Assembly (NCBI GenBank): GCA_965246885.1
Contig: OZ251992.1
Location: 1,280,001-1,344,000 of the forward strand
DNA length: 64,000 nucleotides
Reading direction: 5' to 3'
From: Abditibacterium sp.
Lineage (GTDB): Bacteria > Armatimonadota > Abditibacteriia > Abditibacteriales > Abditibacteriaceae
Positions 25,689 through 41,946 of this stretch are shown here, one piece after another. The position numbers and the translations under genes are program-made. Within the stretch, counting starts at the first letter, position 1. Each line of letters starts with the position of its first letter. The notes beneath the pieces were generated by a model that was given only the letters and a program-made list of their open reading frames with translations, was not told the DNA's origin and searched no databases.

Positions 25689-27020
25689 ATGCTGCTCAAA
25701 CCGGGCGAATCGCTGCAAGGGCGCGATGCCTCTTACGAGATCGTCGAGATTCTGGGCCAAGGCTCCTACGGCACGGTCTTTCGCGCCCGCGACGAGAACG
25801 CCAACTTCGTCGTCGTCAAACAGTTCTTCGATACCGGCTCGGCGTCCAAAGAAGACTTCGCCTATCAACGCAAGCTGTTCTGGCGCGAGGCCGAAATCCT
25901 CTCGCAGATCAACAATCCCAAGATCGTCCGCTTCATCGAACGTTTGCCCGACACCGGGGAGATGCCGCTTGACGGCGATCTGTTCTTGGTCATGGAACTT
26001 GTCCAAGGCCAAACGCTCCGCCGCGTCTTTGACGACTACCGCGCCGCCAACAACAACCAACCTCTGCCACCGGAGAACGTCGCTGCCGTTGGCATCGAGC
26101 TTTGCGAGGCGCTCGATTACCTCCATTCCCTGCCGGGGCAAATCATCTACCGCGATCTCAAGCCCGACAACGTGATGTGGGACAGCGTCGGACAGCGTTG
26201 CAAGCTCATTGACTTCGGGACGGCGCGCTTTACCGACCAGTCTAAACGCGCGACGCAGGGCTTGGGCACCGAGGGCTACGCGCCGCCGGAACTTTATTCG
26301 TCGCGCGCCGAACTTGGCTTTTACACCGACACCTACACCATCGGCGCTCTCTTGTATGAACTGTTGACCGGCGACACGCCCGACCCCAAGGCCACCCCTT
26401 CGCATTTTCGCGGCTTCGACGCACTTATTCCCGCCGCCTTGCAGGAGGTCGTTATCCACAGTTTGCAACTCGACCCGCAAGCGCGATACCCAACGGCAGG
26501 CGCCATGCGCGAGGCGTTGGAAAATACTTCACTTGCCCCCGACGAACCGGCGCTTGAAGCCGTCGGCGCCCCGCGCGCCACCAACTTGCACCCGCTCCTT
26601 TCCTGCTTTTGCCCGAACTGCGGCGCCGTTCCCAAGACCGACAAAGCCATCTACTGCGGCAAGTGTCGCGGCCTGATTCACACCGTCATGCTCCGCGTCC
26701 TGCCGCGCAACGCGCCGCCCGCGCTCTTGTATTTGCAAAAGTCCGAGTCGCTCCTTGGCCGCACCGACCCCGACGGCGGCGTCTTTCCCGACGTAGATTT
26801 AAGCCGTTTCGACGCGGGCCGCTTCGTCTCTCGCCGCCATGCCCAAATCAAGCGTGACGGCGTGAGATTCTTTCTCACCGCTTTCAAAACGCTCAACCCC
26901 ACGCGCGTCGGCGGCTTCGCCGTCGCCCAAGATGCCACCGTCCCTCTCGAAAACGAGGTGCGGCTTGAGTTCGCCGACCTCGTTTGTAACTTCGTCGTGC
27001 GCCCCGTCGTGAACCCGTAG
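25689..27020 (+). CDS. Ser/Thr protein kinase with zinc ribbon and C-terminal FHA domain
   Basis: GQGSYG, VVK, YRDLKPDN, DFG, GTEGYAPPE; CPNC..CGKC; LGR...VSRRHA. Confidence 0.92.
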   Translation: MLLKPGESLQGRDASYEIVEILGQGSYGTVFRARDENANFVVVKQFFDTGSASKEDFAYQRKLFWREAEILSQINNPKIVRFIERLPDTGEMPLDGDLFLVMELVQGQTLRRVFDDYRAANNNQPLPPENVAAVGIELCEALDYLHSLPGQIIYRDLKPDNVMWDSVGQRCKLIDFGTARFTDQSKRATQGLGTEGYAPPELYSSRAELGFYTDTYTIGALLYELLTGDTPDPKATPSHFRGFDALIPAALQEVVIHSLQLDPQARYPTAGAMREALENTSLAPDEPALEAVGAPRATNLHPLLSCFCPNCGAVPKTDKAIYCGKCRGLIHTVMLRVLPRNAPPALLYLQKSESLLGRTDPDGGVFPDVDLSRFDAGRFVSRRHAQIKRDGVRFFLTAFKTLNPTRVGGFAVAQDATVPLENEVRLEFADLVCNFVVRPVVNP

Positions 27021-27036
27021 CGCGTCCGATGAAGAG

Positions 27037-27103
27037 GATTGGAAGGAGGCGGTAGCCCCGCTCCCGTTATTGGCGGGAGCGGGGCTACCGCCTCCTTCCA
27101 ATC
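27037..27103. repeat. REP-like hairpin (GATTGGAAGG..CGGTAGCCCCGC family), copy 1
   Basis: 30-bp perfect arms; second copy at 28685-28747. Confidence 0.9.
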
Positions 27104-27137
27104 AATCGCCCCCAAATCGCGCAGCTTACCAAAAATC

Positions 27138-28634
27138 ATGTCTCCTAACTCATCCGAACACCCGCCCGCTACCGTCGCCCCGTCCGACGACACCGCTTCC
27201 ACCCCGCGCGTGGTCAAGCCGCTTGTCGTGGGCGCGTTTTTGAACGGCGAACTGGAAATCGTCGAGGTTCTCGCGCGCGGGCCGGTCAATTTCTACCGCG
27301 CCAACGCGGGCGGGTGGGGCGACAACGAATGGAAATGGGTGTTGGAACGCGCCGCCGTTTCCGAGCAGCCCCTCGCCGCGCCCGCCGATGAGTTTTTCGC
27401 GCCCGCCGAACGCTTCATCGCCGACGAGCGCGAATACGCCGTGTATGACTACGACGTTCGCACGCCGTTTTCCGATTGGCGCGCGCCCGCGAACGACGAC
27501 ACGTTTCTCTCGCTCATTTCGCCCTTGGCGCGTGCCTTGGAATCCTTGGAAAGCGCCGGACTGAGCGCGCACCTTGACCCCGACGCGCTGTGGTTCGAGG
27601 AAGAAGGGTTGCGATTCTTCGGCTTTGTTGACGCGCCCGCCCCGTCCAATGTGGGCGCGCTCGCTTCGCTTGCCGCGCTCAGTTCCACCCTCGCCAAAGC
27701 GCACCTCGCGCCGCGCGCCACGCTGCGCTTGGACGACGTGTGGGCCGCGTTGCCGTTCTCCGTCGAGTTAAAAAGTTGGGCGGGCGCGCTCGAATCGGGC
27801 GCGTTCGCCTCGATTGCCGACGCGCGCGCCGCGCTTGACCGCTTCGCCATGCCCGCGCGGACGGAGATTGCCGTGCAAACCGATGTCGGCTTGGAGCGCG
27901 ACCACAACGAGGACGGCGTTCTCAGTCTGTCGCTCCGACGCGCCGCGCAAAGCGGGGTTTTGGGTGTGGAGCTGCTCGCCGTCGCCGATGGCATGGGCGG
28001 GCACGAGGCGGGCGAAGTCGCGTCCCAAACCGCGCTCGACGCCCTGCAAAGCGCGCTACTTGCGCGGATGGGCACCGACTGGAACGACAACTTCGCGCTC
28101 CTTGGGTTGGGCCGAGACCTCATCGTCGCCGTCAACGCGGCGGTCATTGCCCAAAACGAAGCGCCGCCTTTTGCCGCCATGCGCCAGAAACCGGGCACGA
28201 CTTTGGTGTTCGCGCTTCGCGTCGGGCGCCGCTTATTGGTGGGAAACGTCGGCGACTCCCGCGCTCTCCGATGGAGCGCCGAGCGCGATTTAGAACTGCT
28301 CACGAAAGATCACTCCTACGTCCAAGACCTGTTGGACGCGGGCAAGATTACGCCCGAAGAAGCGTGGGCGCACCCCGACGGCTCCATCATCACCAGTCAC
28401 ATCGGCATGACGCGCGGCCTCTTGTCGGACGTGTTCCTCCATTTAGTCGCGCCGGGCGAGCGCCTGTTCTTGGTTTCCGATGGCGTCGTGGACACCCTGC
28501 GCGACCCGCAAATCGCCGAGGTCGTCCAAACCGCGCCCGACGCCGCGACGCTCTGCCGCTACCTCGTCAACGCCGCGAACGACGCGGGCGGAATCGACAA
28601 TATCTCCGTCGCGGCGCTGTTTTTCGAGGCGTGA
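27138..28634 (+). CDS. PP2C-family Ser/Thr phosphatase with a degenerate kinase-like N-terminal domain
   Basis: TDVGLERDHNED, VADGMGGH, GTT, NVGDSR, DHS, SDG, GGIDNIS. Confidence 0.92.
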   Translation: MSPNSSEHPPATVAPSDDTASTPRVVKPLVVGAFLNGELEIVEVLARGPVNFYRANAGGWGDNEWKWVLERAAVSEQPLAAPADEFFAPAERFIADEREYAVYDYDVRTPFSDWRAPANDDTFLSLISPLARALESLESAGLSAHLDPDALWFEEEGLRFFGFVDAPAPSNVGALASLAALSSTLAKAHLAPRATLRLDDVWAALPFSVELKSWAGALESGAFASIADARAALDRFAMPARTEIAVQTDVGLERDHNEDGVLSLSLRRAAQSGVLGVELLAVADGMGGHEAGEVASQTALDALQSALLARMGTDWNDNFALLGLGRDLIVAVNAAVIAQNEAPPFAAMRQKPGTTLVFALRVGRRLLVGNVGDSRALRWSAERDLELLTKDHSYVQDLLDAGKITPEEAWAHPDGSIITSHIGMTRGLLSDVFLHLVAPGERLFLVSDGVVDTLRDPQIAEVVQTAPDAATLCRYLVNAANDAGGIDNISVAALFFEA

Positions 28635-28684
28635 AGCGACGTTGCGCCACCAATAGGCAAGGAGTTTCCTGCTTCGAGGAAGCC

Positions 28685-28747
28685 GATTGGAAGGGTGCGG
28701 TAGCCCCGCCAATTTGGTCGAAGCGGGGCTACCGCACCCTTCCAATC
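28685..28747. repeat. REP-like hairpin (GATTGGAAGG family), copy 2
   Basis: 25-bp perfect arms with compensatory changes relative to copy 1. Confidence 0.9.
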
Positions 28748-28860
28748 AAATGCACATCTCGCCGGGACTGTGCGTGACGACTTTTCGCCCCACGCGAGGA
28801 GGCCAATCGCCGCATGGCCCGTCAGTTTCACATCCTTTCTTGGAGGGAGTAACACCAAGT

Positions 28861-28967
28861 CCGGTAGTGGGGTGTTCGTTTGGAGTGCGCCCGTGAGGGC
28901 GTGCCGTTTGCGGCTGTGCCCATTCACGCCCTCACGGGCGCACTCCAAACGAATGCCCTACGACCGG
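28861..28967. repeat. REP-like inverted repeat (TTGGAGTGCGCCCGTGAGGGCGTG)
   Basis: Perfect 29-bp arms at 28875-28903 and 28925-28953, with an imperfect outer extension. Confidence 0.85.
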
Positions 28968-28981
28968 ACAGTGAGTAACAA

Positions 28982-29239
28982 ATGAACAAACACCTCGGAA
29001 CAACACCCCTGCACGACGACGCTCCCGAAGATTGGGAGCGTATCCTTAAACGCGCCGCTATCGTGCAACACTTGCGCGCGTTGGATGCATCGGGCGCAAG
29101 CGCATCTCCCGGCGCGACGCCGCTTCGCAATCCAACGCTCGAAGACAGGGCGTGAATGCTCAAACGCGCCGCCATCGTTCAACGCACGCGCGCATTGGAA
29201 GAAGCGCTGGCCGCTTCCTCCACTCCCACCCCTGCTTGA
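28982..29239 (+). pseudogene. Possible small internally duplicated gene interrupted by an in-frame TGA
   Basis: EDWERILKRAAIVQHLRALD and EDRA*MLKRAAIVQRTRALE lie in the same frame. Confidence 0.35.
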
Positions 29240-29407
29240 CGCGCAAGAGGCCTTCGACCAATACAACGCGGCGGGCGGGGAAAGTTGGGTCAGGCGGGAC
29301 GTTTTCGAGGGTTTGTGACCAAAAGAAGCGAAGACCCTATGGCCAAATAGGAGCCGCGCCCCAAAGTCGCGGACGACGGCGACGGTTTAGTGCGCGCTCC
29401 TCTGTGA

Positions 29408-29544
29408 ACCCGGCGAATCCATTCACCCCCAGAGAAAGGTCTGCCCTGATTCCATCGGGCGCCCAGCCTTCGCGGACACAGAGGCAGTTCGTCGCGGCAA
29501 CGAAGGTTGACGCTTTTCTCTGACCGCGAATGGATTCGCCGGGG
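29408..29544. repeat. Long imperfect hairpin; REP doublet of the GCGAATnnATTC family
   Basis: CCCGGCGAATCCATTC pairs with GAATGGATTCGCCGGG; inner pairs CAGAGAAAG/CTTTTCTCTG and CAGCCTTCG/CGAAGGTTG. Confidence 0.7.
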
Positions 29545-29754
29545 TAGTGCAGGCTTGCAGCGCGCCCGTTGCTCTTGTGAATGTGACTGCCGTGCCATTT
29601 CGTGCGCCTTTTACGCTGTTTCGCGCGCCCTTTATGCCGTTCAGAAAGCCCGAAATGCACTTTAGAGAGGATTTTCCGCTTTTTAGCGTGCCCATCGGAG
29701 CATTTGTCGCGGCACTCGACCCTTTTATCGTCACTGATAGCCGCCGAGGGAGGA

Positions 29755-29990
29755 AAACAAAAGGCCGGGGTCAAAAACAATACGCCGGGGGCAAGAAACA
29801 AGAGGTCGTGGGAAAGAAAAAATACGCCGGGGGAGCAAAACAAAGGGCCGGGGACATGCTACAAGGCGCCGGGGACGTGCTAAACGGGGCCGGGGGAGCA
29901 AAACAAGGCGCCGGGGACGTGCTAAACGGAGCCGGGGACGTGCTAAACGAGGCCGGGGGAGCAAAACAAAGGGCCGGGGACATACTGCAA
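29755..29990. repeat. 21-bp-period tandem array (GCCGGGG core), about 11 units
   Basis: Cores at 29764, 29784, 29805, 29826, 29847, 29868, 29889, 29910, 29931, 29952, 29973. Confidence 0.85.
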
Positions 29991-30096
29991 ACCTCCGATG
30001 CTCGTTTGAGAATGGGAAAAGTCGTGCGAAAAAGCGGCTCGCCCGTCCGCAAAGCGCGCGCGGAACGAAAACTGCGAACGCGCCACACTACTATCA

Positions 30097-31359
30097 ATGC
30101 CAGATTTAGCCCTACGCACATCGCTGGACAAAGAGTTTCGCCCGACGCGCGGCGAATTTCTGCAAACCCTCCTCATCGAACTCTCGCCCGGTCGCGGACT
30201 GCGGACATTGCCGCTCAACTTGGGCATCCTGCTCGACAACTCCGGCTCGATGGAAGGCGAAAAGTTGGAGCGCGCCAAACGCGCTTGCACGCTCATTCTC
30301 GACCAACTGTCGCCCGAAGACCGCGCGACAGTCGCCGTCTTTTCGAGTGGCGCGCGCGTTGTGGTTCCGTCCGCGCCTTTCGCCGAAGGCGCGGGGTTTC
30401 GCGCGCGGCAAAGCGTGATGGACGTGCGCGTCGAAGGCGCGACCGAACTGCTCGCGGGGCTGAACACCATTTATAAGGAAATCGAGCCGCACAAAACGCC
30501 CGCCAACACGACGTTTGTCATCGTGCTTTCGGACGGTCAGCCGACGGACTCGCAAGGCTTCGTTGACCGCGACCTGCCGAAGTTCTTGGAGCGCGCCAAG
30601 TCCGAGTTCGAGCGCGGCGGCGTGTCGTTATCCACGATTGGACTTGGGAAGGCCGAGGATTACGACGCGACTTTCTTGCGCGATTTGGCCGACAAAGGAA
30701 GCGGGAAGTTCCTCATGGCGCAGACGCCCGAAGAATTGGCGGGCGTCTTTCAGGATGAGTTCGGGCGCATCTCCTCGACCGTGCTGAGCGACGTGACCAT
30801 TGAAGTCTCCCGCTTGAACGGGCGCGCGCGGCGTTTGTGGCGCGTGGTGCCCGACAAGAAAATCTTCGACCCGCCGCAAGTCGTCAGCAACTCTTTCCGC
30901 GTTCCCGTCGGCAGCGTGCAGAACGACCAGCCGCAAGCGTATTTGCTCGACGTTGTAACGAGCGCGCCCGATGGCGCGAAGTCGCGCGACTTGCTGTGCC
31001 AAATCGCGGCGTGGAGCAGCGCCAATCCCGCACAAAAGGCCGAAGTCAACGTCTTAACAGGCTACTCGGACAACGAAGTCGAACTCGCGCAGCGCAACGG
31101 CGAAGTCGTGAGGCTGCTCGAAGAAGCCAACGATTTCAAACTGCAAGTGGACTTGGAAGCCGCCGTCAAAGCGGGCGACAAGCGCAAAATGACGCAAGTC
31201 TTGGAGCGCAAAAAGAAAATGACGCAGCGTTTGGGGAAAAGCGCGGCGACCAAAGTCTTGGAGGAAATGGAAGAAACGCTCGGCAAAGGCGGCGACATTT
31301 CCGCCGAAACCCTCGCCGTGTCGTCGGCGGAAACAAAGAAGACTAAACGCCTTGCGTAA
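30097..31359 (+). CDS. von Willebrand factor A domain protein
   Basis: MIDAS motif DNSGSM, GAT, LSDG, TIGLG. Confidence 0.9.
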   Translation: MPDLALRTSLDKEFRPTRGEFLQTLLIELSPGRGLRTLPLNLGILLDNSGSMEGEKLERAKRACTLILDQLSPEDRATVAVFSSGARVVVPSAPFAEGAGFRARQSVMDVRVEGATELLAGLNTIYKEIEPHKTPANTTFVIVLSDGQPTDSQGFVDRDLPKFLERAKSEFERGGVSLSTIGLGKAEDYDATFLRDLADKGSGKFLMAQTPEELAGVFQDEFGRISSTVLSDVTIEVSRLNGRARRLWRVVPDKKIFDPPQVVSNSFRVPVGSVQNDQPQAYLLDVVTSAPDGAKSRDLLCQIAAWSSANPAQKAEVNVLTGYSDNEVELAQRNGEVVRLLEEANDFKLQVDLEAAVKAGDKRKMTQVLERKKKMTQRLGKSAATKVLEEMEETLGKGGDISAETLAVSSAETKKTKRLA

Positions 31360-31367
31360 ACAATTAA

Positions 31368-31452
31368 AGCCACAGATGGACACAGAAGACACGGATGTTT
31401 TGGAGGATTTATCCTTTGCTTGTATCCGTGTTTCCCGTGTCCATCTGTGGCT
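31368..31452. repeat. REP-like inverted repeat (GCCACAGATGGACAC family)
   Basis: AGCCACAGATGGACAC pairs with GTGTCCATCTGTGGCT. Confidence 0.8.
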
Positions 31453-31461
31453 AATTCAAAC

Positions 31462-32097
31462 ATGATCACCTGTCCAGCTTGCAACCATTCCAACGTGGAT
31501 GGCACCCAGTTCTGCGAAATGTGCGGCGAGGAATTGCCGCACAACAGCGCGACGGCGTCCGCTCCGACGGGCAACGAAGTCAAATGCCCGAACTGCGGCC
31601 ATCTCAATCCGCCCGAAAACCTCGCGTGCGAAGCGTGCGGCACGAACTTAAAACCCGCCGCCGCGCCGGTTTCCATTCCCGCGCCGCTTGTGCCGCCCGT
31701 TTTGGAAACAACTCCCTTCGATGCCGCGCCCGTCGCGGCGACGGACACGTCCATCGCGGGCGATTTGAAGCCGGGATTGGTGAAATTGGTCGTCGAGCAG
31801 GGCCAAAGCGTGGGCGCACAGTTCATCCTCAACGACAACGCAATCGAAGTCGGGCGCGAAGACGAGGACGAAGCGATTTACCCCGACATAGACCTGTCCG
31901 ACCAAGACGCGGGCTACGTTCATCGCCGCCACGCCACGCTCAAATTCGAGAACGGACACTTGCTTGTCACGCACTTGGGCGGCGCCAACAAGACGCGCGT
32001 CAACAACAAACCCGTCGCCGACAACACCCCGACGCCCGTCAAACTCGGCGATAAAGTCGCGTTTGGGAAAGTCGTGCTGCGCTTGATGCCGGTGTAA
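31462..32097 (+). CDS. Double zinc-ribbon and FHA domain protein
   Basis: CPAC..CEMC, CPNC..CEAC; VGR...VHRRHA..NKTRVN. Confidence 0.9.
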   Translation: MITCPACNHSNVDGTQFCEMCGEELPHNSATASAPTGNEVKCPNCGHLNPPENLACEACGTNLKPAAAPVSIPAPLVPPVLETTPFDAAPVAATDTSIAGDLKPGLVKLVVEQGQSVGAQFILNDNAIEVGREDEDEAIYPDIDLSDQDAGYVHRRHATLKFENGHLLVTHLGGANKTRVNNKPVADNTPTPVKLGDKVAFGKVVLRLMPV

Positions 32098-33164: not shown

Positions 33165-34604
33165 TCAAGGCACCGCCGTCAGCCACCCATGTTTCGCCTG
33201 CAACTTCGCGGCGACGGCGGGCGAAACCATGTGGATGAACGCCAGATAGCCGCGCGCGTAGGGGAGGGCGGGTTTGCCCATTTGCTCGGAAACCGCGCCC
33301 TCGCCGCGCGTTTCGATGGCGTGCAGGACGGCGCGGAAGCGGCGCAGGTCGCGGCGCGACAGGCGCGGCTCGCCGTCGCCGTTGACGACCAAACCCGTCA
33401 CGCTTTGCCGCGCGCCGCGCCGCAGGAGCGCGATTTTGTCGGGGTTGAGCGCGAACTGCTCGGCTTCCAACACGGTCAACACGCCGCGTTGCAAGGAGAT
33501 GGGCCGCGCGTCGGGCGCGGGCGACGAAAACACGAGGTCGTCGGCGTAGCGCGAATAGGTGAATCCGTAGTGCGCCGCCATGCCCTGAAGCCGCGCGTCC
33601 AAGCGGCGGCAGAGCAAATTCGTCAGCGCGGGCGAAGTCGGGGCGCCTTGCGGCACGAAGCGTTCGCCAAGAGCGACGTAGGATTTCTGGCCGTCGAAAG
33701 TGGCCGCAACGCGCGGCGATTCGGTGCAAATCAGCGCGAGCAGGGTGGCGATACCGCGATTGTAACCGAGCGAGCCGAACACCCCGGCAACGCGCGCGAA
33801 GGTGATGGACGGGAAGAAATCCTTCAAGTCCACGCGCAAGAGGGCGCTCGGCCCGCCCGATTCGGTGTGCGCGTGTCGGGCCGCGTTGTCGGCGATGTTG
33901 AGAGCGGGCAAGAACGCGGCGGCGGCAGCGTGAACCGGAACGGGGCGTAGCACGGCCTCCAGAATCTTGCTTTGCGCCGCTTTCAGATACGGGCGGGGCG
34001 CGGAAATGGCGCGACTGCCGCCGCTTCGTTTGGGAATGGAAAAGTGCGAGTAGTGATCGGTCGGCGCGGCTTCGCGGTGGTAGCACAACCACGCGAGTTG
34101 GCCGACGTTCATCTCCAGAAAGCCCGCCAAATCGCGCGGCTCGTTCCACACGGGCAGGCCAAAGCGCGCCAGTTTTTCGGCGTCGGACGGGATGGAAAAG
34201 TCGAGGCGGCGCGATACGCCGCGTCCCAAATGCGGTAACTGCTCGGAGCGCCACCGGGCGTCGTCGGCCAAGCGCAACTCGCGTTCGCGGGCGCGGCGTT
34301 CCTTTCGTTCGGCGCGCGCGGCTTTGACGCGCTCGATGCGGGCGCGGCGCACTTCGGCCAGCTTTGCTTCGATGTCTCCGGCGCTTGAAAGTTCGCGCTC
34401 CACGTCGCTCAGGCGGGCGCGCAAAGGGCGCGCATCCTCGGCAACGGCGCGCAGTTCGTCGTTGAGCGGCGCTAATTTGGCGCGTAGTTCCTCGGCAGTG
34501 GCGGGCGCGTCGCCGTTGGCGGGCGGCCAAAAACCAAGCCGTTCTATCTCGCGGCGCTCAAATTCGCGCTTCCCCAACTGCTTGATGTCGTCGCGCCAAC
34601 TCAT
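33165..34604 (-). CDS. Retron reverse transcriptase (Mx162-like, long N-terminal coiled-coil extension), 479 aa
   Basis: IPKRSGGSRAISAP, region X DNAARH, DLKDFFPSI, PQGAPTSP, YSRYADD, region Y QSVTGLVVN. ATG overlaps the SWIM stop (ATGA). Confidence 0.92.
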   Translation of the reverse strand: MSWRDDIKQLGKREFERREIERLGFWPPANGDAPATAEELRAKLAPLNDELRAVAEDARPLRARLSDVERELSSAGDIEAKLAEVRRARIERVKAARAERKERRARERELRLADDARWRSEQLPHLGRGVSRRLDFSIPSDAEKLARFGLPVWNEPRDLAGFLEMNVGQLAWLCYHREAAPTDHYSHFSIPKRSGGSRAISAPRPYLKAAQSKILEAVLRPVPVHAAAAAFLPALNIADNAARHAHTESGGPSALLRVDLKDFFPSITFARVAGVFGSLGYNRGIATLLALICTESPRVAATFDGQKSYVALGERFVPQGAPTSPALTNLLCRRLDARLQGMAAHYGFTYSRYADDLVFSSPAPDARPISLQRGVLTVLEAEQFALNPDKIALLRRGARQSVTGLVVNGDGEPRLSRRDLRRFRAVLHAIETRGEGAVSEQMGKPALPYARGYLAFIHMVSPAVAAKLQAKHGWLTAVP

Positions 34605-36313
34605 CTCGCGCTCTCCTTTTCGGCTTGCGCCAAGCCCGCGAGCAAATGCGCGCACGGGCCGCCGCGTCCCTTGTCGCGGCGAAACTCGCCGCAGGTGCAT
34701 TGCCAGAACCGCACGCGCCCGTCCAAGTCGCGCGCCCACAAAGGCCTGAAAACTCCGCCTTCAGTTGCAACGACCGCTTGGAAAAAGGCGACATCGGGCG
34801 CGTTGTATCTCTGAAAAAATTCGTCCTCATCAATCTCGTCTGTGGGAATCGCTATCAAGATGACCAGTTGTTTCTCGACCCAGCGCCGCGCCGATTTCGT
34901 TTTGGCATCCTCCTCAGATTCGGGCGCCGGGAACGCGAGCAGTTGCCGCCAGCGATAGGCGCCGATCTTGGCATCGAAGAGCGCGCGGCCTTCCCGACAC
35001 AACTTTTGCAGAGCCGCGCCCGCTTCCTCGCGTGGCCAACTCGCAAACGCTGCCAACGCCTCGACTGAAAGCACGCGCTTCCACTCCAACTCCTTCGCGG
35101 CGATTTGCAGGCTCGAATCAGAGATTTCCCGCCCCGCCGCAAGCGCATCAAAGCGGGCTGAGGCGCTCCAATCGTTCTGCGTCCAGCCGGACAGCCCCAA
35201 CTCGAAGCGGTGCCCCTCCAACTCCAAAGCCCAAAACGACGGCAAACCGTCGCCCAGTAGCCGCACTTCGACCGATTGCGCGTGCGGCAACAACTCCGAC
35301 AACACGGACAAGCGCCGCCGTCCCCAAATACGGACGGTGCGCGCCGCCCCTTCGTAGGAGATGTTCGGCTCGCGCACGGTTTCTCCCCAAGGTTCGATTT
35401 CAATCGTGGGCAACTCGCCCGGCGCGAGCGAAAACTTGAGCGAACGCGGCCCGCTCGTTTCGCGGCGCGCGGCCAGAAGTCGCAATATCTCGGCAACGGT
35501 CGTCGCGCTCAAGCGCAAAGTCGTCGTCGCCAACGCCGAGGCGCTCCCCACCTGCAAAAACCCGCGCACCCACGACGGCGGCAGGTCTATCTTCTTTTCG
35601 ACCCGCGTGCCCGCAGAGGTTTGCACGCTCACGCCGCCGCTTCCCACGCTCAGAAACGCACCCCGATAGTCGCGCACCCGCGCCAATTCGTCGGCCAGAC
35701 TCTGCGAAAAGTCCACGTTCGTCGTGCCGTACGCTACCTCGCCGAGCGCGTCGAGGTTCTCGGACGGCACGCGCACGCACGCATAGCTGGATTCGTCGAG
35801 CGAGAACACCTCGAACAGCACCGCGTCGGGATGCACCGACACGACCGGATCAAGCACGATCCACATCTGCCGGTCGTGCGTGTAGAGGAACTGCCAGAAT
35901 TTGTATTGCGCGTCGCGGTAGCTTTTCGCGTCACCGCGCGATAGTTTTTGCACCTCTTGCAGTAGCTCCTTCGCGCGCCCATCGAGCGTCGCCAAGCGCG
36001 TTTGGAGTTCTTCCGATTCGCTCTGCAACTGCGGCAAGCGCCCGCGCAGCGCCGCCAAGTAGGGCGCCAAGTCCTTGAGGTATTCGCCCTGCACCCACGC
36101 CTGATAGTCCGTGTGGTCGCGCCCGACGAAGCGCGCTTCTTGCGACACGACGCGGTGCAACGCGCCCATCACGCGGCCATAGGCGCGCGAGTGCAACACC
36201 AACGCTTCCAACCGCACGCCGGGCCGGGCGGCTTCTGTGGGCAAAGAGAAGTCAAGGCCGTCGCCGCGCGGCTGGGCCGACGAGGGAAAGGGGTAAGATT
36301 GGGTAATTTGCAT
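34601..36313 (-). CDS. SWIM zinc-finger protein (retron-associated type), 570 aa
   Basis: C-terminal CTCGEF...GPCAH; LDPVVSVHPD..FEVFSLDESSY, GTTNVDF, EKKIDLPPSWVRGFLQV, LSGWTQNDW. Confidence 0.85.
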   Translation of the reverse strand: MQITQSYPFPSSAQPRGDGLDFSLPTEAARPGVRLEALVLHSRAYGRVMGALHRVVSQEARFVGRDHTDYQAWVQGEYLKDLAPYLAALRGRLPQLQSESEELQTRLATLDGRAKELLQEVQKLSRGDAKSYRDAQYKFWQFLYTHDRQMWIVLDPVVSVHPDAVLFEVFSLDESSYACVRVPSENLDALGEVAYGTTNVDFSQSLADELARVRDYRGAFLSVGSGGVSVQTSAGTRVEKKIDLPPSWVRGFLQVGSASALATTTLRLSATTVAEILRLLAARRETSGPRSLKFSLAPGELPTIEIEPWGETVREPNISYEGAARTVRIWGRRRLSVLSELLPHAQSVEVRLLGDGLPSFWALELEGHRFELGLSGWTQNDWSASARFDALAAGREISDSSLQIAAKELEWKRVLSVEALAAFASWPREEAGAALQKLCREGRALFDAKIGAYRWRQLLAFPAPESEEDAKTKSARRWVEKQLVILIAIPTDEIDEDEFFQRYNAPDVAFFQAVVATEGGVFRPLWARDLDGRVRFWQCTCGEFRRDKGRGGPCAHLLAGLAQAEKESAR

Positions 36314-36340
36314 GATGGTCTTCCTGCCTTTGTGCTGGCG

Positions 36341-36410
36341 GGCGGGCAACCACATGGGTTGCCCCTACGGAGAGGGTGAGTGGTAGGGGCAACCGTATGG
36401 GTTGCCCGCC
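36341..36410. repeat. GTAG-type REP doublet (GTAGGGGCAACC...GGTTGCCC)
   Basis: Two inverted palindromic units, each with a GTAG end, inside the operon. Confidence 0.85.
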
Positions 36411-36424
36411 GTGCTGCGCTCTGG

Positions 36425-39400
36425 TTAAGGCGAAACCCGCAACCCCTCCACTTCCACGCCGCTCAACCGCAACCGCACGAGTTGCGCTAAGGCCCATTCG
36501 CGGTCGCGCCCCGCGCCGGTGCGCGCGGCGTCGAGCAGGGTGGCGACATCGGTCGTCTGCGCGTGACGGAGGCGGAGTTGCACGAGGTTTTTGGCGCGGC
36601 GCGAACTCCCGCGCGTGTTCAAGATGGAAGTGTCGAAGGCGGCTATGGGCGCCGTTGCGGGCGCGGTTTGGAGTTGCGCGGCCACAAAAGCGCGCACGCG
36701 GGGCGCGTCGTGTTGCGCGAGTTGTTCCAAGAGCGCGGGCGTCCAACGCGCGGGAAAACGCGCGAGCAAGTCGAGTCCGGCGTGTTGCGTTTCGCTTTTG
36801 GGCGAGTCGCACAGCGCCAACACGCGGGCGGGCCATTCGTCATTCTCGGCTTCAAAGAATGGGCGCGCGAGCGCGAGGCCTTCGGGCAAGCCGCTTTCCA
36901 TCAATCGCAGCCCCGCGCGCAGATTAAGCGGCGTTTGGCGCAAGCGGGCCAAAGCTGGGGCGCGGAACTCCTCATTCAAGGAAGTCGCGGCGGCGAATAG
37001 GAGCGGTTCGTCGCCCGCCATCGTGGGCAAGTGCGCGGCAAACCACGCTTCCAAGAGGGAGTCCAAACCGCCCTTGTTCGCTTCCATGAGCGGCAACACG
37101 GCATGCGCGGGCAATTCCGCGAACGCATTGTTTGCCCGCGCGCGTCCGATGCGCTCCAACCACGCGGCGCCTTGGGGGGCGTCGAGTTCGCTTAGAAACG
37201 CCCACAACGCGCCCGTGAGGGGCAAGGCCGTGAGGTTGTCGGCGAAGGTTTGGCTCGGCAGAGCCGCTAATTTGCGCCACGTCGCAACGGAAAGGTTGGG
37301 GGCCAGCGCCGCGAAAAAGTGTGCGCGGCCAAGCGGAGGGAGAAGTGCGGCGAAGTCGAAATCTTCGGCGCTCGCGGCGGCTTCGATGCGCGCGGCGAAC
37401 GCTTCGGCAAAGCGCGCTTCGCCGCCCAACTGCCAGAACTGCGCGCGCAACGCGGGCTGATTCCACAACCACTCCGCGACGGCGGGCGCCATCTTCATCG
37501 CCATCAAAGCGGGCGCGAGAGGTTCGAGCAACTCCTGCGCGGCGACGGTTCCCCACTCCGCGAGCGTCAATCCGTCGGGCCGCGCGCCAGTCAGCGCCGC
37601 GCAAAAGACGGCGCGGAGCGTCGGCAGGAGTTGCTTCGCCAGCGCGAATTGCGCGGCCCGCGCGCGCGCTTCGACAAGCGGCGTCGCCCACGCCACAACT
37701 TCCGGCTCGTCGGCTTCGGGCGCGTCGAGGGCGCGCAGAACCCATCCCTCGCTCGGCTCAATTTGCCTAAAGCGCGCGAACAAGAGGAGCAGTTCGCCGC
37801 GCACCGGAAGGAAGCGCGCCTCTTGCAACTGGCGCGCGAGCGGTTTCCAATCGGCGTTCGGGTTGGCCGACAAAGCCGCGCGCACGACGGCGAGCGCGAG
37901 TTGCGGCGCCGCGCTTGTGGCGAAGCGGAGCGCGTGTTCGGGTGTGGCGGCGGGAGTCTCGCCGCGCCGCGTCAGCCACTCCCACGCCCACGCCAGAATC
38001 GGGATGGGGAGGGCGTCGTCGCTCCACAACGCGCGCACCAAGTCGGGCCGCGCGGCGAAGACGGTGTCTTGGAGGCCCAAGCGAAAGGCGAGGGTGCGCG
38101 CGATATCGCCGCTTTGCGCGCGTTGCAGCGACCCCAAAACGAGCGGAGCGAGCAGGGCGCGGCGCTCCGGCGCGAGTTCGGTTTGTTCCGCTAAGAAGCG
38201 CAGCAACCGCTCGGCGCGGCGGGTGAGGTAAGCGACCGTCGCGCGCGTTGGCCCGCCGTTCGGCAGGCGTTTCGGGTCGCCGCGCCGCGCCGTCTCGGAG
38301 TCGAGGCGCCCAATCAGCACACCCAACAAGAGCGCCTCGCGCTCGGTGGCGAGGGGCGCGTCGGGCGGCAAGTCGCTCTCGGTTTTCTTCCAACGCGCGC
38401 GGGTTTGGAGTGGCCAAACCCGCGTTTCCAACGCTTTCCACGCGCGCTTGAAGTCGGGCCAAGTGGCGCCATCGAGCGGCGCACCGCGCAACTCGCGGCG
38501 CAACTTCTCGAAGTCGGCGCCCTCCGCGCCAAGCGCCATGTTCTGCGGCGGCAGGACGGCGTGCTTCGTCGGGTCAAATGGCAAACGCAGACTCAGGCGA
38601 AGCGATTTCGGGCGCGTCGAGGCGGGCTTAGGCAGCGACGAAAGTAGCAGCGTCGGCACCGTCTCGAAGTGATTGTCCGCGAAGAAGCGCGCCTTCGCGT
38701 CGTCGGACGCGAACGTCAGCACATACGCGCGGCCCACACCCGGATTCGCCGCCATATAAGGAAGCAACCGCGTCGGACTCCCCGTCTTGGTGCCCAAGTC
38801 GTTGATGAACACAACGGCGTCCTCTTGGGCAGTGAGCGGAGTATCTTGAGTGCGGAGCCGCGTTCCGAAGGGCGTGCGCGAGGTGGCGCGGACGGTGACT
38901 TGAGCGCGGTCAAACGAGTTGAACCAGTCATTCTGGATGGCGATGCCACTCCATTCGAGCGGGCGCCCCGCGCTTCGCAGCACGCGCGGTAGGTAGTCGC
39001 CCATCTCGCCCGTCAGTTGCGCGAAGCGGATTTTGGCTTCCCAGATGTTGGGCGCGGACGCGATACGTTCACGGAGCAGGGGCGCCAACTCGCGTTCGAG
39101 ACGCACGACTGCGGCGGCCAATCTGTCTTGAGTCGCGCCAGAGAAAATCAGCGCTTCACCTGTTTCGCTGACTTCCAACTTGTCCGGCGCAAACGCAAGC
39201 TCGACGCCGAGAGAAGTTCGCATTCCGCCCAGATTGCGGCTAAGCAGAAGCCCAGTAGAAACGGGGAAACCGACGTCATCCACCACTGCGAAGGATGAGC
39301 CGCCGCGTGTGACCTTCCATCTGTCGCCCTCGAATAGAACCTCGCCGCGTTGAGAGCCGCCCAAAGCCCCACCCCGAACGCGCGGCGGGACGCGGAAGAA

Positions 39401-40183
39401 GTCGAAAACGCGCGCGGCTTCGTGCCCGACGTGATTCGCTCTGAGTAACGAAGCGCCGATAGGGACTTCCACTTCCACGCCATCCCCCTGATTCGTCGGC
39501 ACTTCGCCGTCTTTGGTGACGGTGCCGATGCCCGCCATGTCGAGGGCGCATCGGAAGGTTTTGGCCCTCCCGCCTTGGAAGGTCGAGACGCGGAACTCGT
39601 CAGCGTAAGCGTAGGCGGCGCGCGCGCCGAAGTCGGAAGTGACGGCGGGCGAGAGGGCGTAGCGCGCGAGAACTTCGGCTTCGGTTGGGACGGCGCCATA
39701 CGAGCGGACGCGGAAGCGGGGGTCTTGGGCGGTCGGAAGCCAAACATCGAAGGGCGTGTCGCCGATGCCCGCCGCGTCGTGGAAAGCGCGCGCTTCGAGG
39801 GCGATTTCGCGGATGAGCGCGGCGATGGGGTTCGAGTAGCGCAGCGCGACGGGCAAAGCCGCGCGGTTGACGCCGATGACGGCGGGCGCACTTTGAATCG
39901 GCGCGGGCGAAGTGTTGGCGGGTGTCGCGGCGCGGGGCGCGTAGCGAAATGGGGGCGTCGCGGCCTTGACCGAAGCGTCGGGCGCGCGGTCGTAACCGGG
40001 CATCTGCCCACCCGAAAACATCGTTTGCACCACGCCGTTGACAAGGGGGTGCGGCACTTCGACGCCCGCTCCCAAGCGGCGCCGCACCTCCAGCGTTATC
40101 TCGTAGGCTGTGAACGAGGCGCCCGCCACGACTTGATCCAAAACGGTCTGGCGCGCTTCTAATTCGATTTGGGGGTTAGTCAT
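36425..40183 (-). CDS. 1252-aa protein: small N-terminal domain, degenerate RIIA-like GHKL region, C-terminal HEAT/ARM repeats
   Basis: YSNPIAALIREI...PRFRVRSYG...AYADEFRVST...GVEVEVPI; C-terminal helical repeats LRLMESGLP, LALCDSP, RDREWALAQL. Confidence 0.75.
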   Translation of the reverse strand: MTNPQIELEARQTVLDQVVAGASFTAYEITLEVRRRLGAGVEVPHPLVNGVVQTMFSGGQMPGYDRAPDASVKAATPPFRYAPRAATPANTSPAPIQSAPAVIGVNRAALPVALRYSNPIAALIREIALEARAFHDAAGIGDTPFDVWLPTAQDPRFRVRSYGAVPTEAEVLARYALSPAVTSDFGARAAYAYADEFRVSTFQGGRAKTFRCALDMAGIGTVTKDGEVPTNQGDGVEVEVPIGASLLRANHVGHEAARVFDFFRVPPRVRGGALGGSQRGEVLFEGDRWKVTRGGSSFAVVDDVGFPVSTGLLLSRNLGGMRTSLGVELAFAPDKLEVSETGEALIFSGATQDRLAAAVVRLERELAPLLRERIASAPNIWEAKIRFAQLTGEMGDYLPRVLRSAGRPLEWSGIAIQNDWFNSFDRAQVTVRATSRTPFGTRLRTQDTPLTAQEDAVVFINDLGTKTGSPTRLLPYMAANPGVGRAYVLTFASDDAKARFFADNHFETVPTLLLSSLPKPASTRPKSLRLSLRLPFDPTKHAVLPPQNMALGAEGADFEKLRRELRGAPLDGATWPDFKRAWKALETRVWPLQTRARWKKTESDLPPDAPLATEREALLLGVLIGRLDSETARRGDPKRLPNGGPTRATVAYLTRRAERLLRFLAEQTELAPERRALLAPLVLGSLQRAQSGDIARTLAFRLGLQDTVFAARPDLVRALWSDDALPIPILAWAWEWLTRRGETPAATPEHALRFATSAAPQLALAVVRAALSANPNADWKPLARQLQEARFLPVRGELLLLFARFRQIEPSEGWVLRALDAPEADEPEVVAWATPLVEARARAAQFALAKQLLPTLRAVFCAALTGARPDGLTLAEWGTVAAQELLEPLAPALMAMKMAPAVAEWLWNQPALRAQFWQLGGEARFAEAFAARIEAAASAEDFDFAALLPPLGRAHFFAALAPNLSVATWRKLAALPSQTFADNLTALPLTGALWAFLSELDAPQGAAWLERIGRARANNAFAELPAHAVLPLMEANKGGLDSLLEAWFAAHLPTMAGDEPLLFAAATSLNEEFRAPALARLRQTPLNLRAGLRLMESGLPEGLALARPFFEAENDEWPARVLALCDSPKSETQHAGLDLLARFPARWTPALLEQLAQHDAPRVRAFVAAQLQTAPATAPIAAFDTSILNTRGSSRRAKNLVQLRLRHAQTTDVATLLDAARTGAGRDREWALAQLVRLRLSGVEVEGLRVSP

Positions 40184-40191
40184 AATCTTTA

Positions 40192-40250
40192 TCGCGCAGA
40201 GGCGCAAAGGCGCGGATGTAAAAAACCTTGGCGTCTTCGCGCCTTTGAGA
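40192..40250. repeat. REP-like inverted repeat (CGCGCAGAGGCGCAAAGGCGC family)
   Basis: CAAAGGCGCG pairs with CGCGCCTTTG. Confidence 0.6.
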
Positions 40251-40267: not shown

Positions 40268-41563
40268 TCACTCAAACTCCAGCAAATACACGGGGTTAGC
40301 TTGGGCGGTGTCGAAGATGATGACTTCGTCGTTGATGAGCCAGCCGGACTTTCCGGCGCGCGCCCAGTAGGAGTCGTAACCGGCGGGCGGGTTCTTGCTG
40401 GTCGTGGTCTTTGGCTCGAAATCGCGGCCAACGGCGACCTCGTTGAGGAACATATAAATTTTGCGCGTGCCCTTGCCGCCCCAAAAGCCGTTGGCGTATT
40501 GCAGCGATTTGGTCGAGGCGGGCGCGAAGTAGAGGCCGTTGCCAAAGGCTTTTCCGGCGATGTGGGCGGTCGAGGGCGGCGTCATCATAAAGCCGGACTT
40601 GAGGATGGACAAGACATTGGCGCTGGAAGTGCCGTGCCACAAGCGGTGGATGTTGCCTTTGGCGCGTCCGCGCTCCTCGAAGTTGCGCTTCATGCCCGCG
40701 ATTTCGACGGTGTAGACGTTGGCGAGATTTAGGTGCTTGATGGTGACGTGTTCGGTTTTGGCGGAGGTCTCGAAGTGGTGCTTGATGGCGTTAAACTCCG
40801 CGTCGTCGCGGAGTAGTTCAAGCGCGGTATCGAAGAGTTGCGGGACAGGTTCCGGCTCCTTGCCTTCTTCTTTGGGCGCAGTAAGCGCGGTCGTGAGACT
40901 CGCTTCAAGCGAGTCGAGGATGCCCAATTGTTTCTGGATTTCGGCATCGTCGGGGAAAAGCGACTTGGGATCGGGGCGGGTGCGGCCAAAGTCGCGCGGC
41001 ACGATGGTGAGGAACTGATTGACGAAATCAAGGTAGTCCTTGTCGTCCCAGATGCCCGCGTCCACTTTGTCCTTGATCTTCGAGAGCAGCAAACGCCCGT
41101 CCAAGATGCCGCCCTGCGTGATTAGCCCCGACGCGGTGGAGAACAACCCCGTCGCCGCGTTGTATTTGATGGCCGAGTTCGCGGTGATGTTGTGGATGTT
41201 TTGCGCGCACAGGAACGAAATGAGCGCCTTGACTTCGAGCGATTGGGTGCGGATTTGTTCGAGGGCGATCTGCTCCAATCCGGCGTTTTTGGCGCCCGCT
41301 CCAGTGGGAATGTTGGCGTCGAGAACGGGTTGCGGCTTGTAGCCCTTGGCGGTCTTTTCGCGCAGCTTGGAGTTGAAAAGCCGCTCGCCGCCCGCTTGGG
41401 TGGTGTCGGACTGCGTTTGCAGTTCGCCGCCGGAGTTCTCGATGTAGCGACCGTAGCGGATGCGGACGGTGTCGTCCTCGTGGAGGTCGAGATAGTAGAA
41501 CTTGTTGTTGTTGGTGCCTACCGACACGAAAATGAGCCGTGCGCTTTGGGTAACTTTCGACAT
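40268..41563 (-). CDS. Poly(ADP-ribose) polymerase-like protein: WGR, PARP regulatory and PARP catalytic domains
   Basis: NNNKFY...RYGR...KTAKGY (WGR); NQFLTIVPRDFG (regulatory); LWHGT, FGNGLYFA, KSLQY, NDEVIIF (H-Y-E triad); GGAG RBS. Confidence 0.9.
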   Translation of the reverse strand: MSKVTQSARLIFVSVGTNNNKFYYLDLHEDDTVRIRYGRYIENSGGELQTQSDTTQAGGERLFNSKLREKTAKGYKPQPVLDANIPTGAGAKNAGLEQIALEQIRTQSLEVKALISFLCAQNIHNITANSAIKYNAATGLFSTASGLITQGGILDGRLLLSKIKDKVDAGIWDDKDYLDFVNQFLTIVPRDFGRTRPDPKSLFPDDAEIQKQLGILDSLEASLTTALTAPKEEGKEPEPVPQLFDTALELLRDDAEFNAIKHHFETSAKTEHVTIKHLNLANVYTVEIAGMKRNFEERGRAKGNIHRLWHGTSSANVLSILKSGFMMTPPSTAHIAGKAFGNGLYFAPASTKSLQYANGFWGGKGTRKIYMFLNEVAVGRDFEPKTTTSKNPPAGYDSYWARAGKSGWLINDEVIIFDTAQANPVYLLEFE

Positions 41564-41639
41564 GGTGATTCTCCCGACGCGGCAAAGGCGTTGGATAAAG
41601 GGTTCTCGCGGAAGAGAATTGGGTTGTCAAAACAAAGAA

Positions 41640-41910
41640 ACAAAGTGGGGCGGCACGCAGCTTTACCAACCGAGACGGGCGCCAGTCGCTGTAACCCGGT
41701 TTGCGGGGCGCGCGCCATATGTCGCACCGGTTGTGTCGTAGCCCCGTAGGGAAGCTACCGTGCGACACAACCGGTGCGACATATGGCGCGCGCCCCGCAA
41801 ACCGGGTGAAAACACACCGGCGACCCGTGCTGCAAGCGCAGCGAAAAGGGAAGTCATTGCTCGTCCGGCGAAACACCGGACACATTGCCAACGCCCCGCT
41901 CCACCATGTT
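41640..41910 (-). ncRNA. Candidate retron msr-msd ncRNA
   Basis: Perfect 45-bp hairpin (41694-41738 / 41763-41807), two small 5' hairpins (41829-41842, 41863-41881), terminal complementary segments (about 41642-41655 / 41886-41902); lies between a promoter and the RT operon. Confidence 0.7.
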
Positions 41911-41917
41911 GACGGAG

Positions 41918-41946
41918 AATTTATCGCACTTCTCAGTCCAGCGCAA
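41918..41946 (-). promoter_or_regulatory. Putative sigma70 promoter for the ncRNA-PARP-RT operon
   Basis: Minus strand TTGCGC-N17-TAAATT. Confidence 0.5.

Follow-up and report, generated by a model that had tools for sequence, protein, structure and literature searches.

The question raised by this locus is whether an intergenic element in a 64,000-nucleotide stretch of Abditibacterium sp. DNA (hereafter the window) could provide the RNA of a retron whose reverse transcriptase (RT) is encoded some 7 kb away. A first-pass annotation, made from the letters of the sequence, had put the element forward as the candidate msr-msd of that RT, about 7 kb and three genes upstream of it. The genes concerned are as follows (throughout, L-numbers are locus labels and G-numbers genome labels of the present analysis).

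40268..41563, minus strand: WGR-PARP_reg-PARP protein, 431 aa, with H310-Y345/Y356-E413 kept.
36425..40207, minus strand: 1260-aa protein with a small N-terminal domain, an rIIA-like region and a C-terminal ARM/HEAT part.
34601..36355, minus strand: type XIII SWIM protein, without the ~90-aa BRCT tail of sister lineages.
33165..34604, minus strand: type XIII retron RT, 479 aa, with NAARH at 240, YADD at 353 and VTG at 402.

PADLOC assigned the RT to RT_XIII with an E value of 1.1e-139 (6.8e-85 for the next model) and its neighbor to SWIM_XIII (1.9e-150), with matches to HEAT-ARM_XIII (9e-7, over a short stretch) and WGR_XIII (3e-4). The SWIM motif, CxCx12CxH, lies at residue 553, and the C-terminal 200-300 aa of the 1260-aa protein are homologous to the ARM proteins of sister loci. 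The RT is the sole RVT_1 match in a genome that is 92.7% complete, and its nearest relatives, 64-76% identical, belong to Abditibacterium or Abditibacteriota. Between the stem of the element and the RT start lie 7,089 nt and three genes (PARP, ARM and SWIM), in agreement with the distance first proposed; the SWIM stop overlaps the RT start, leaving no space for an ncRNA beside the RT. The operon is flanked by genes for a Gfo/Idh/MocA oxidoreductase and PurT and by kinase/PP2C/vWA/FHA genes; those tested are not defense genes, which argues against a defense role. On the plus strand at 25689-32097, a cluster encoding Ser/Thr kinase-FHA, PP2C, vWA and zinc-ribbon-FHA proteins converges on the retron operon.

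The element itself can be described by the following features.

41941..41946, minus strand: predicted -35 box, TTGCGC (TTGACA at the same place in L003 and L113).
41918..41923, minus strand: predicted -10 box, TAAATT, 17 nt from the -35 box.
41889..41905, minus strand: 5' arm of the terminal helix (a2); two-sided changes at 11 of its 17 pairs across six orthologues.
41888, minus strand: predicted branching guanosine in a TGGCA context, invariant in 6 of 6, facing the unpaired G 41661.
41863..41881, minus strand: msr stem-loop 1, 8 bp, with the CGGTG-TTT-CGCCG core common to type XIII retrons.
41829..41842, minus strand: msr stem-loop 2, GCTGC-GCTT-GCAGC, present in the PARP clade only.
41675..41828, minus strand: msd, with a 12-bp outer stem (41828-41816 with 41686-41675), an internal loop and a 114-nt inner hairpin.
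41694..41807, strand not assigned: 114-nt inner hairpin with a perfect 45-bp stem; length invariant, sequence free.
41644..41660, minus strand: 3' arm of the terminal helix (a1), with the unpaired G 41661 in front.
41662..41833, plus strand: predicted msDNA, 172 nt (177 nt under the other a1/a2 register).

All of the features first picked out by eye, namely the promoter boxes, the two msr hairpins, the 45-bp stem and the outer stem, are present. The 45-bp stem is a perfect inverted repeat with arms at 41694-41738 and 41763-41807. Folding of the minus-strand RNA, suggested at the outset as a check, gave -186.1 kcal/mol (z -12.2), a value equaled by none of 200 shuffles. No Rfam family matched the 64-kb window. 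The proposed TTGCGC-N17-TAAATT promoter stands with respect to its letters and spacer but not its consensus strength: the boxes match 7 of 12 consensus positions and were not listed by a consensus promoter scanner. The candidate is credited because the 17-nt spacer is kept in seven of seven orthologues, not because of its consensus score. By homology, transcription would start at ~41910.

A rival reading is that the hairpin, lying in the PARP promoter region, is a palindrome that arose by chance or came in with a REP-like or MITE-like insertion. Genome-wide, 67 perfect hairpins of at least 35 bp were found, 26 at least as long as that of the window among the top 40 matches listed; stem length by itself is therefore unremarkable here, and such repeats sit between operon genes in related loci. 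Other copies exist for 61 of the 67. The window hairpin is among the six for which they do not, and no second copy was found in the 3.56-Mb genome, at odds with the many copies expected of a REP or MITE. The signature of msr hairpin, stem and TACAG occurs once among 28 msr-like hairpins genome-wide. The first-pass annotation had warned that a hairpin recurring in unrelated intergenic regions would be just another REP; across the genome, the hairpin proved to be single-copy and a member of no REP family. Several REP-like families do form perfect 40-73 bp hairpins (e.g. G000:C1:1953517-1953643), the largest with ~70 copies, and five further long hairpins of the genome are also single-copy.

Homologous upstream regions, whose inspection had likewise been recommended, carry the same element with its fold kept: in five of five other genomes with the same operon and enough upstream DNA, it lies before the PARP gene. 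A six-way alignment was made of the window with L002, L003, L111, L112 and L113, with the structure taken from the window; for the long element of the orthologues, the comparison relied on counts of pairs and on a shorter model built from other loci. In this alignment, 96.0% of 522 cells were paired, and 52 of 87 pairs showed two-sided changes, comprising 40 of 45 in the long stem and 11 of 17 in the terminal helix, where 89% of cells were paired over the 17 positions. Slid controls were 36-41% paired and 0 of 500 shuffles scored as high, a count that is no probability given that the sequences are related and the structure was derived from one of them. The branch G, the opposite G and the msr hairpin were invariant among the six orthologues.

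All six PARP-clade copies measured have an inner hairpin with a span of exactly 114 nt, and their hairpin arms are identical at 8-24 of 40 letters (mean 35%). A seventh copy, L177, on another contig of the genome of L001, has an assembly gap inside its 5' arm; its 47-nt 3' arm and 20-nt loop are consistent with 114. A search with the msd-base pattern gave three matches in metagenome contigs, all with 86-nt spans, and none in viral contigs. Contig depth over the palindrome was approximately doubled in run X1, as the shared words of the two hairpin arms would produce, and showed a hole in run X2; neither bears on msDNA. The repeat reading is largely refuted given the single copy, the conserved length in orthologues and the covariation, and is now barely credible: position, anchors and exact length are kept while sequence is exchanged, which is the opposite of the behavior of a repeat family, and the terminal helix and msr hairpin covary along with the inner hairpin. 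Selection would appear to act on the length of the duplex and not on its sequence, as for a scaffold read by its backbone. A 45-47 bp stem that tolerates any sequence would be a natural candidate carrier of editing donors.

To place the distant RNA in context, 80 loci identified via the RT were combined with 40 regions around 40 of 75 SWIM matches from a search of 401 genomes of the phylum and with three Myxococcota loci; nine regions (duplicates or without an RT) were dropped, and 114 RTs were arranged in a FastTree tree, unrooted and with no outgroup. A clade of 45 rows (support 99) comprises Armatimonadota/Abditibacteriota together with L010 and L012. The RNA lies at the operon head in 38 of these rows; six of the seven rows without RNA end at a contig end, and L022, a complete locus, shows none. 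No RNA was found beside the RT in the 45-row clade, in which the SWIM-RT gap is at most 100 nt in 36 rows. The distance from RNA to RT is 5.1-6.2 kb in the 30 loci without PARP and 7.1-8.4 kb in the six with it. The distant RNA position is a clade trait and is not peculiar to the window genome. Such retrons would be called RNA-less by any search that covers just a few hundred bases 5' of the RT or that relies on current RT-adjacent models. Among the other 69 rows, 28 have a hairpin and stem at most 1.3 kb upstream of the RT match, nine more have an msr hairpin in that interval, one (L020) has it downstream, and in 31 none was verified; L018 and L064, labeled RT-adjacent by hand without a match, were left uncounted.

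Several further arrangements were observed. On a Nannocystis/Polyangia branch of 27 loci (L017, L019, L026, L027, L031, L032, L035, L038, L040, L041, L045, L049, L054, L056, L057, L060-L062, L065, L067, L071, L072, L074, L075, L077, L079 and L080), no msr-msd was detected within 10 kb, two loci being also negative 18 kb further upstream. These loci encode ~2,100-2,300-aa ARM proteins and a SWIM protein abutting the RT, and may use a divergent or trans-encoded RNA; another member of the branch, L020, carries an msr-msd downstream of the RT (L020:6120-6400). Natural tandem arrays of two to four msr-msd copies per type XIII operon, with stems that differ in sequence and are equal in length, occur at L148:4849-5900, L005:3366-4120, L006:3441-4250, L004, L120, L122, L123 and L144, and further at L023, L029, L043, L046 and L076. 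A literature search on retron arrays found engineered retron arrays and UG27 arrays alone (accessible part of 10.64898/2026.09.22.753630). At L007:2299-3963, a TROVE/Ro60 gene lies directly 5' of the operon-head msr-msd.

With the exception of gene contiguity, the sequence features of retrons are found in the window: inverted repeats for a1/a2 pairing, an unpaired G that closes the 5' arm as the branching position (G41888, 6 of 6), one to three short msr hairpins with one long msd stem-loop, and an RT with region X, YADD and region Y (NAARH, YADD and VTG). The RNA gene is not contiguous with the RT gene (7,089 nt, three genes), which is taken as a variant and not an exclusion given that exceptions are in print (Ec73, St85 and Vc81). 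The features particular to type XIII, a clade 10 RT, a SWIM protein and a HEAT/ARM accessory protein, are all present, and the unrooted RT tree, with no outgroup, groups the window RT with Mx162-like and Ne144-like RTs. A surrogate covariance model of the msr, trained on 18 RT-adjacent msr from other phyla, gave the window element as its top match in the 64 kb (12.8 bits, E 0.068); the match was weak genome-wide (rank 6 of 7, E 3.8), and none of the six other PARP-clade copies was detected. With this model, 37 of 38 matches to Armatimonadota fell on operon-head elements (best E 4e-7). Given that a model of RT-adjacent RNAs finds the head elements, the two form one family; given that it is weak on or blind to the PARP clade, the tie of this clade to canonical type XIII RNAs runs via sister lineages, and sister loci of the same family share the anchors around the hairpin with it.

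Taken together, the type XIII RT and SWIM proteins, the sole RT match, the single copy, the covariation and the operon-head position throughout the clade bear out the original proposal, and the element is very probably the cognate msr-msd of the downstream type XIII retron (a PARP-ARM-SWIM-RT operon). A different outcome would be that a retron-derived RNA survives here only as a structured leader of PARP, an attenuator or translational switch that is no longer reverse transcribed. The RNA does lie within the leader of PARP, where 134 nt separate the end of the stem from the ATG, with a U-rich tract after a1 and a small conserved element before the start codon; the window element scores weakly against the canonical msr model, and the ncRNA of type VI retrons is reported to control translation (10.1101/2025.10.22.683967). 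This is nonetheless improbable, since the RT motifs are intact and the RT is 64-76% identical across the clade, the branch G, opposite G and msr hairpin are invariant, and a perfect 45-47 bp stem of fixed length exceeds the needs of a leader. Leader control and msDNA synthesis could coexist. The small element is a TCTC-N6-GAGAA hairpin; in the PARP clade, this conserved hairpin and a GCCGCG motif precede the ribosome-binding site of PARP (minus strand, 41600-41617 and 41563-41585), and they are possibly involved in processing or translation control.

Returning to the element as a cognate msr-msd, its predicted product depends on how the terminal helix is drawn, and two registers of a1 and a2 are possible. 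In register A, 41905-41889 pairs with 41660-41644; it is favored by 9.9 kcal/mol over register B, with pair probabilities of 0.57-1.0 at 13 of 17 positions as against 0.00. Register B places the DNA start within one base of that given by the first-pass annotation and was also picked by an automatic script, whose branch points were implausible in several rows including the window and from which only the spans were used. In register A, the opposite G lies 32 nt past the stem, as in L002, L111 and L112 (34 nt in L003 and L113), and the branch G lies 29 nt past the -10 box (29-30 nt in 6 of 6 measurable relatives). The two pairs beside the branch G are predicted to be open in the window copy (probabilities 0.01 and 0.00). 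Given the energy, the ensemble and the spacings shared with orthologues, 41888 is the likely branch G and 41662 the likely start of the DNA. The a1/a2-like pairing noted earlier is thus upheld as a helix but not in its implied register.

The predicted msDNA folds as DNA with -81.6 kcal/mol, and reverse transcription is predicted to end at ~41833, in the region of msr stem-loop 2. The earlier estimate (~41658-41830, ~170 nt) was correct in approximate size, but its ends are displaced from the likely 41662-41833 (172 nt). The likeness of CAGCTTTACC to the 5' end of myxobacterial msDNA, on which the earlier proposal had partly drawn, was rejected on the grounds of register energy, position and non-conservation: the DNA would start at 41662 with TTTACC, and the starts of the orthologues are unrelated. 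Given that the orthologues begin with different letters, the resemblance of CAGCTTTACC is probably due to chance; the real tie to Mx162-like RNAs lies in the msr hairpin and overall layout. Homologous anchors in the Myxococcales loci L159 and L160 yield 162 and 163 nt, and both show a CAGC branch context, which is that of Mx162 and Sa163 in passages of PMC6868368, where the Mx162 msd is stated to be 162 nt; the labels Mx162/Sa163-like and Ne144-like for L159, L160 and L151 go back to branch context, computed length or genus and not to an alignment with the named retrons. The window context, TGGC, differs from the TAGC and CAGC contexts listed in that source.

The seven PARP rows of the RT tree form one clade (support 100), and this branch is marked by several changes. 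The inner hairpin spans 114 nt in its six measured copies versus 84-91 nt in all 42 copies from 31 sister loci, and the CGCTGA motif at the hairpin tip, present in 36 of the 42 sister copies, occurs in none of the six. Its SWIM proteins are without 83-100 C-terminal residues that are present in 36 of 38 other clade rows and constitute a BRCT domain in the two tested. The ARM protein has an rIIA-like front in three of three PARP-clade proteins tested, which is absent in the one sister tested. PARP orthologues that are 38-42% identical (~40%) occur in 18 other genomes of the phylum; upstream of the stand-alone ones, the RNA was absent at nine of nine loci examined. The gene following the stand-alone PARP resembles, at two loci, the first 100 residues of the window ARM protein (at one by tblastn, at the other by eye), so that the small N-terminal domain of the 1260-aa protein is common to both.

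The simplest history suggested by these sequences is that a PARP cassette entered the operon between RNA and ARM gene. By the tree, the ancestor of Armatimonadota would already have had its RNA heading the operon at 5.1-6.2 kb from the RT, a distance that the insertion would have extended to 7.1-8.4 kb; on the same branch, the stem would have gained 14 bp, the tip motif changed and the SWIM protein lost its BRCT tail. The coincidence of stem length and PARP lies beyond statistics, being a single evolutionary event. The surprising part is that a fixed 114-nt, sequence-free stem coincides with PARP capture.

Related loci provide some additional observations. L010 (2767-5320) and L016 (1937-3403) are type XIII loci with a distant WGR-PARP (23-27% identity) upstream and ordinary spans of 85 and 78 nt; L010 also encodes a separate WGR protein and a SWIM protein without the BRCT tail. 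These are possibly independent PARP associations. Three genomes carry both a PARP-type (114-nt) and a BRCT-type (86-nt) retron, namely G084 (L002 and L121), G125 (L113 and L122) and G072 (L003 and L123), some with a third, more distant SWIM homologue. Inner hairpin spans fall into classes of ~57-59, 72-74, 84-91 and 114 nt, in steps of ~14 nt (7 bp); outside Armatimonadota the classes are rough, only the perfect stem being measured, and some spans are 77-80 nt.

A minimal mechanism for the retron can be drawn from homology and from established retron biology. Here, a2 would pair with a1, and the RT would bind msr stem-loop 1, its likely recognition site. The 2'-OH of G41888 would prime synthesis at 41662, and synthesis would stop at ~41833, leaving a short RNA-DNA hybrid. 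The RT, made from the far end of the operon, would in this way copy the leader RNA into a 172-nt branched hairpin DNA and would stay bound to it with the partner proteins, for which the msDNA is likely, from its fixed length, to be a duplex scaffold. The distance between the RNA and RT genes is immaterial in this scheme, since the RT, once translated, has in any case to locate its RNA; according to passages of PMC10849725, the majority of 98 retrons tested function with the ncRNA moved behind the RT, and clade 10 ranks with the best producers of that panel.

Granted the retron reading, what the scaffold serves can be read in two ways, each of which we hold tentatively. In the first, more speculative in its steps, the PARP is released by breaks. 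Intact branched msDNA, presenting no free break, would hold the complex quiet; once cut or displaced, for instance by a phage nuclease or a DNA-binding protein, it would present exposed ends that switch on the WGR-PARP, which would consume NAD+ and ADP-ribosylate targets. Bacterial WGR-PARPs are DNA-dependent (passages of PMC5966428), and the catalytic triad is kept in the window protein. Against a link to the PARP stand its stand-alone orthologues, the ordinary spans at L010 and L016 and the single evolutionary event. In the second, the msr-msd is cognate and the PARP a passenger or independent: the ARM and SWIM proteins would use the msDNA for a housekeeping function that is inherited vertically, e.g. 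a checkpoint for DNA damage or replication stress, and the length of 114 nt would follow the rebuilt ARM protein, not the PARP. Consistent with this, the SWIM gene occurs in 20 of 26 other genomes of the family, type XIII is reported in part of PMC7736814 as vertically inherited, correlating with 16S, two retron clades (not named in the source passages of 10.1101/2020.06.21.156273) are rarely near defense genes, the ARM protein too is altered on the PARP branch (rIIA-like front), and PARPs standing alone exist. By contrast, the PARP gene lies between RNA and ARM in five of five complete orthologous loci and is more conserved there (72-83% identical) than the ARM protein (36-57%), the small companion domain of the PARP is fused to the ARM protein, and loss of the BRCT tail coincides with gain of the WGR-PARP. 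We regard a housekeeping role free of PARP control and the PARP-control reading as about equally likely.

A more specific version of PARP control, which appears doubtful, treats the msDNA as a DNA ruler of calibrated length, with the 14-bp extension selected because it accommodates the break-sensing PARP. If true, the retron itself would supply the DNA ligand that restrains a PARP1/2/3-like enzyme and lets it go on damage; type XIII retrons would monitor DNA for breaks, as complexes assembled from components of the PARP toolkit (WGR, BRCT and, in the window, PARP itself), and their hairpin lengths (~58, 73, 86 and 114 nt, in ~7-bp units) would match their protein partners. Irrespective of this, the locus offers type XIII an easily assayed enzyme (NAD+ use, ADP-ribosylation) and a natural experiment, in which hairpin length is fixed to the base with sequence free and shifts by 14 bp on the PARP-gaining branch. 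Mx162-type retrons, the earliest to be discovered, still have no settled function in the searchable literature.

The consulted part of PMC7736814 (Mestre et al. 2020) defines type XIII and presents retrons as contiguous RNA-RT cassettes. Our literature search, with subscription journals mostly outside it, found no paper that describes type XIII RNAs at the operon head, a retron linked to a PARP or an msd of fixed length. The supplements of PMC13712802 include one row for a type XIII retron of Abditibacteriaceae, and PARP is absent from the text and supplements of that source as far as they were available. The 114-nt length fixed with free sequence and the 14-bp gain on the branch of PARP capture are new. 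Ec73, St85 and Vc81 (in passages of PMC6868368) share with the window an RNA gene that is not contiguous with the RT gene, but they have one accessory ORF between the two where the window has three large genes, and their RT clade and partners are unrelated. The WGR-PARP_reg-PARP enzymes of H. aurantiacus and C. difficile CD160 have the same domain order and catalytic triad as the window protein; for them DNA-dependent activity is reported, whereas the window protein is known from sequence, and the available portion of PMC5966428 mentions no retron link.

A further close comparison is with the sister loci (e.g. L004-L009 and L114-L147), which share the operon-head RNA, the anchors around the inner hairpin (identical ACCC/GGGT-TACAG in those of the same family) and, in most, a distance of 31-34 nt from stem to opposite G; they differ from the window in a SWIM protein with a BRCT tail, in having no PARP and often in two to four tandem RNA copies. 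With type XIII as described in part in PMC7736814 (clade 10; Mx162, Sa163, Mx65 and Ne144), the window shares an RT with a long N terminus, the SWIM and HEAT/ARM proteins, the msr hairpin core, a terminal helix with G facing G, the outer stem, a pyrimidine internal loop and a long inner hairpin. In type XIII the RNA adjoins the RT, whereas in the window it heads the operon, three genes and 7 kb away; the inner hairpin is 114 nt as compared with ~86 nt in Mx162-like loci, and to the type XIII plan the window adds a second msr hairpin, a changed tip motif, a PARP gene and an rIIA-like front on the ARM protein.
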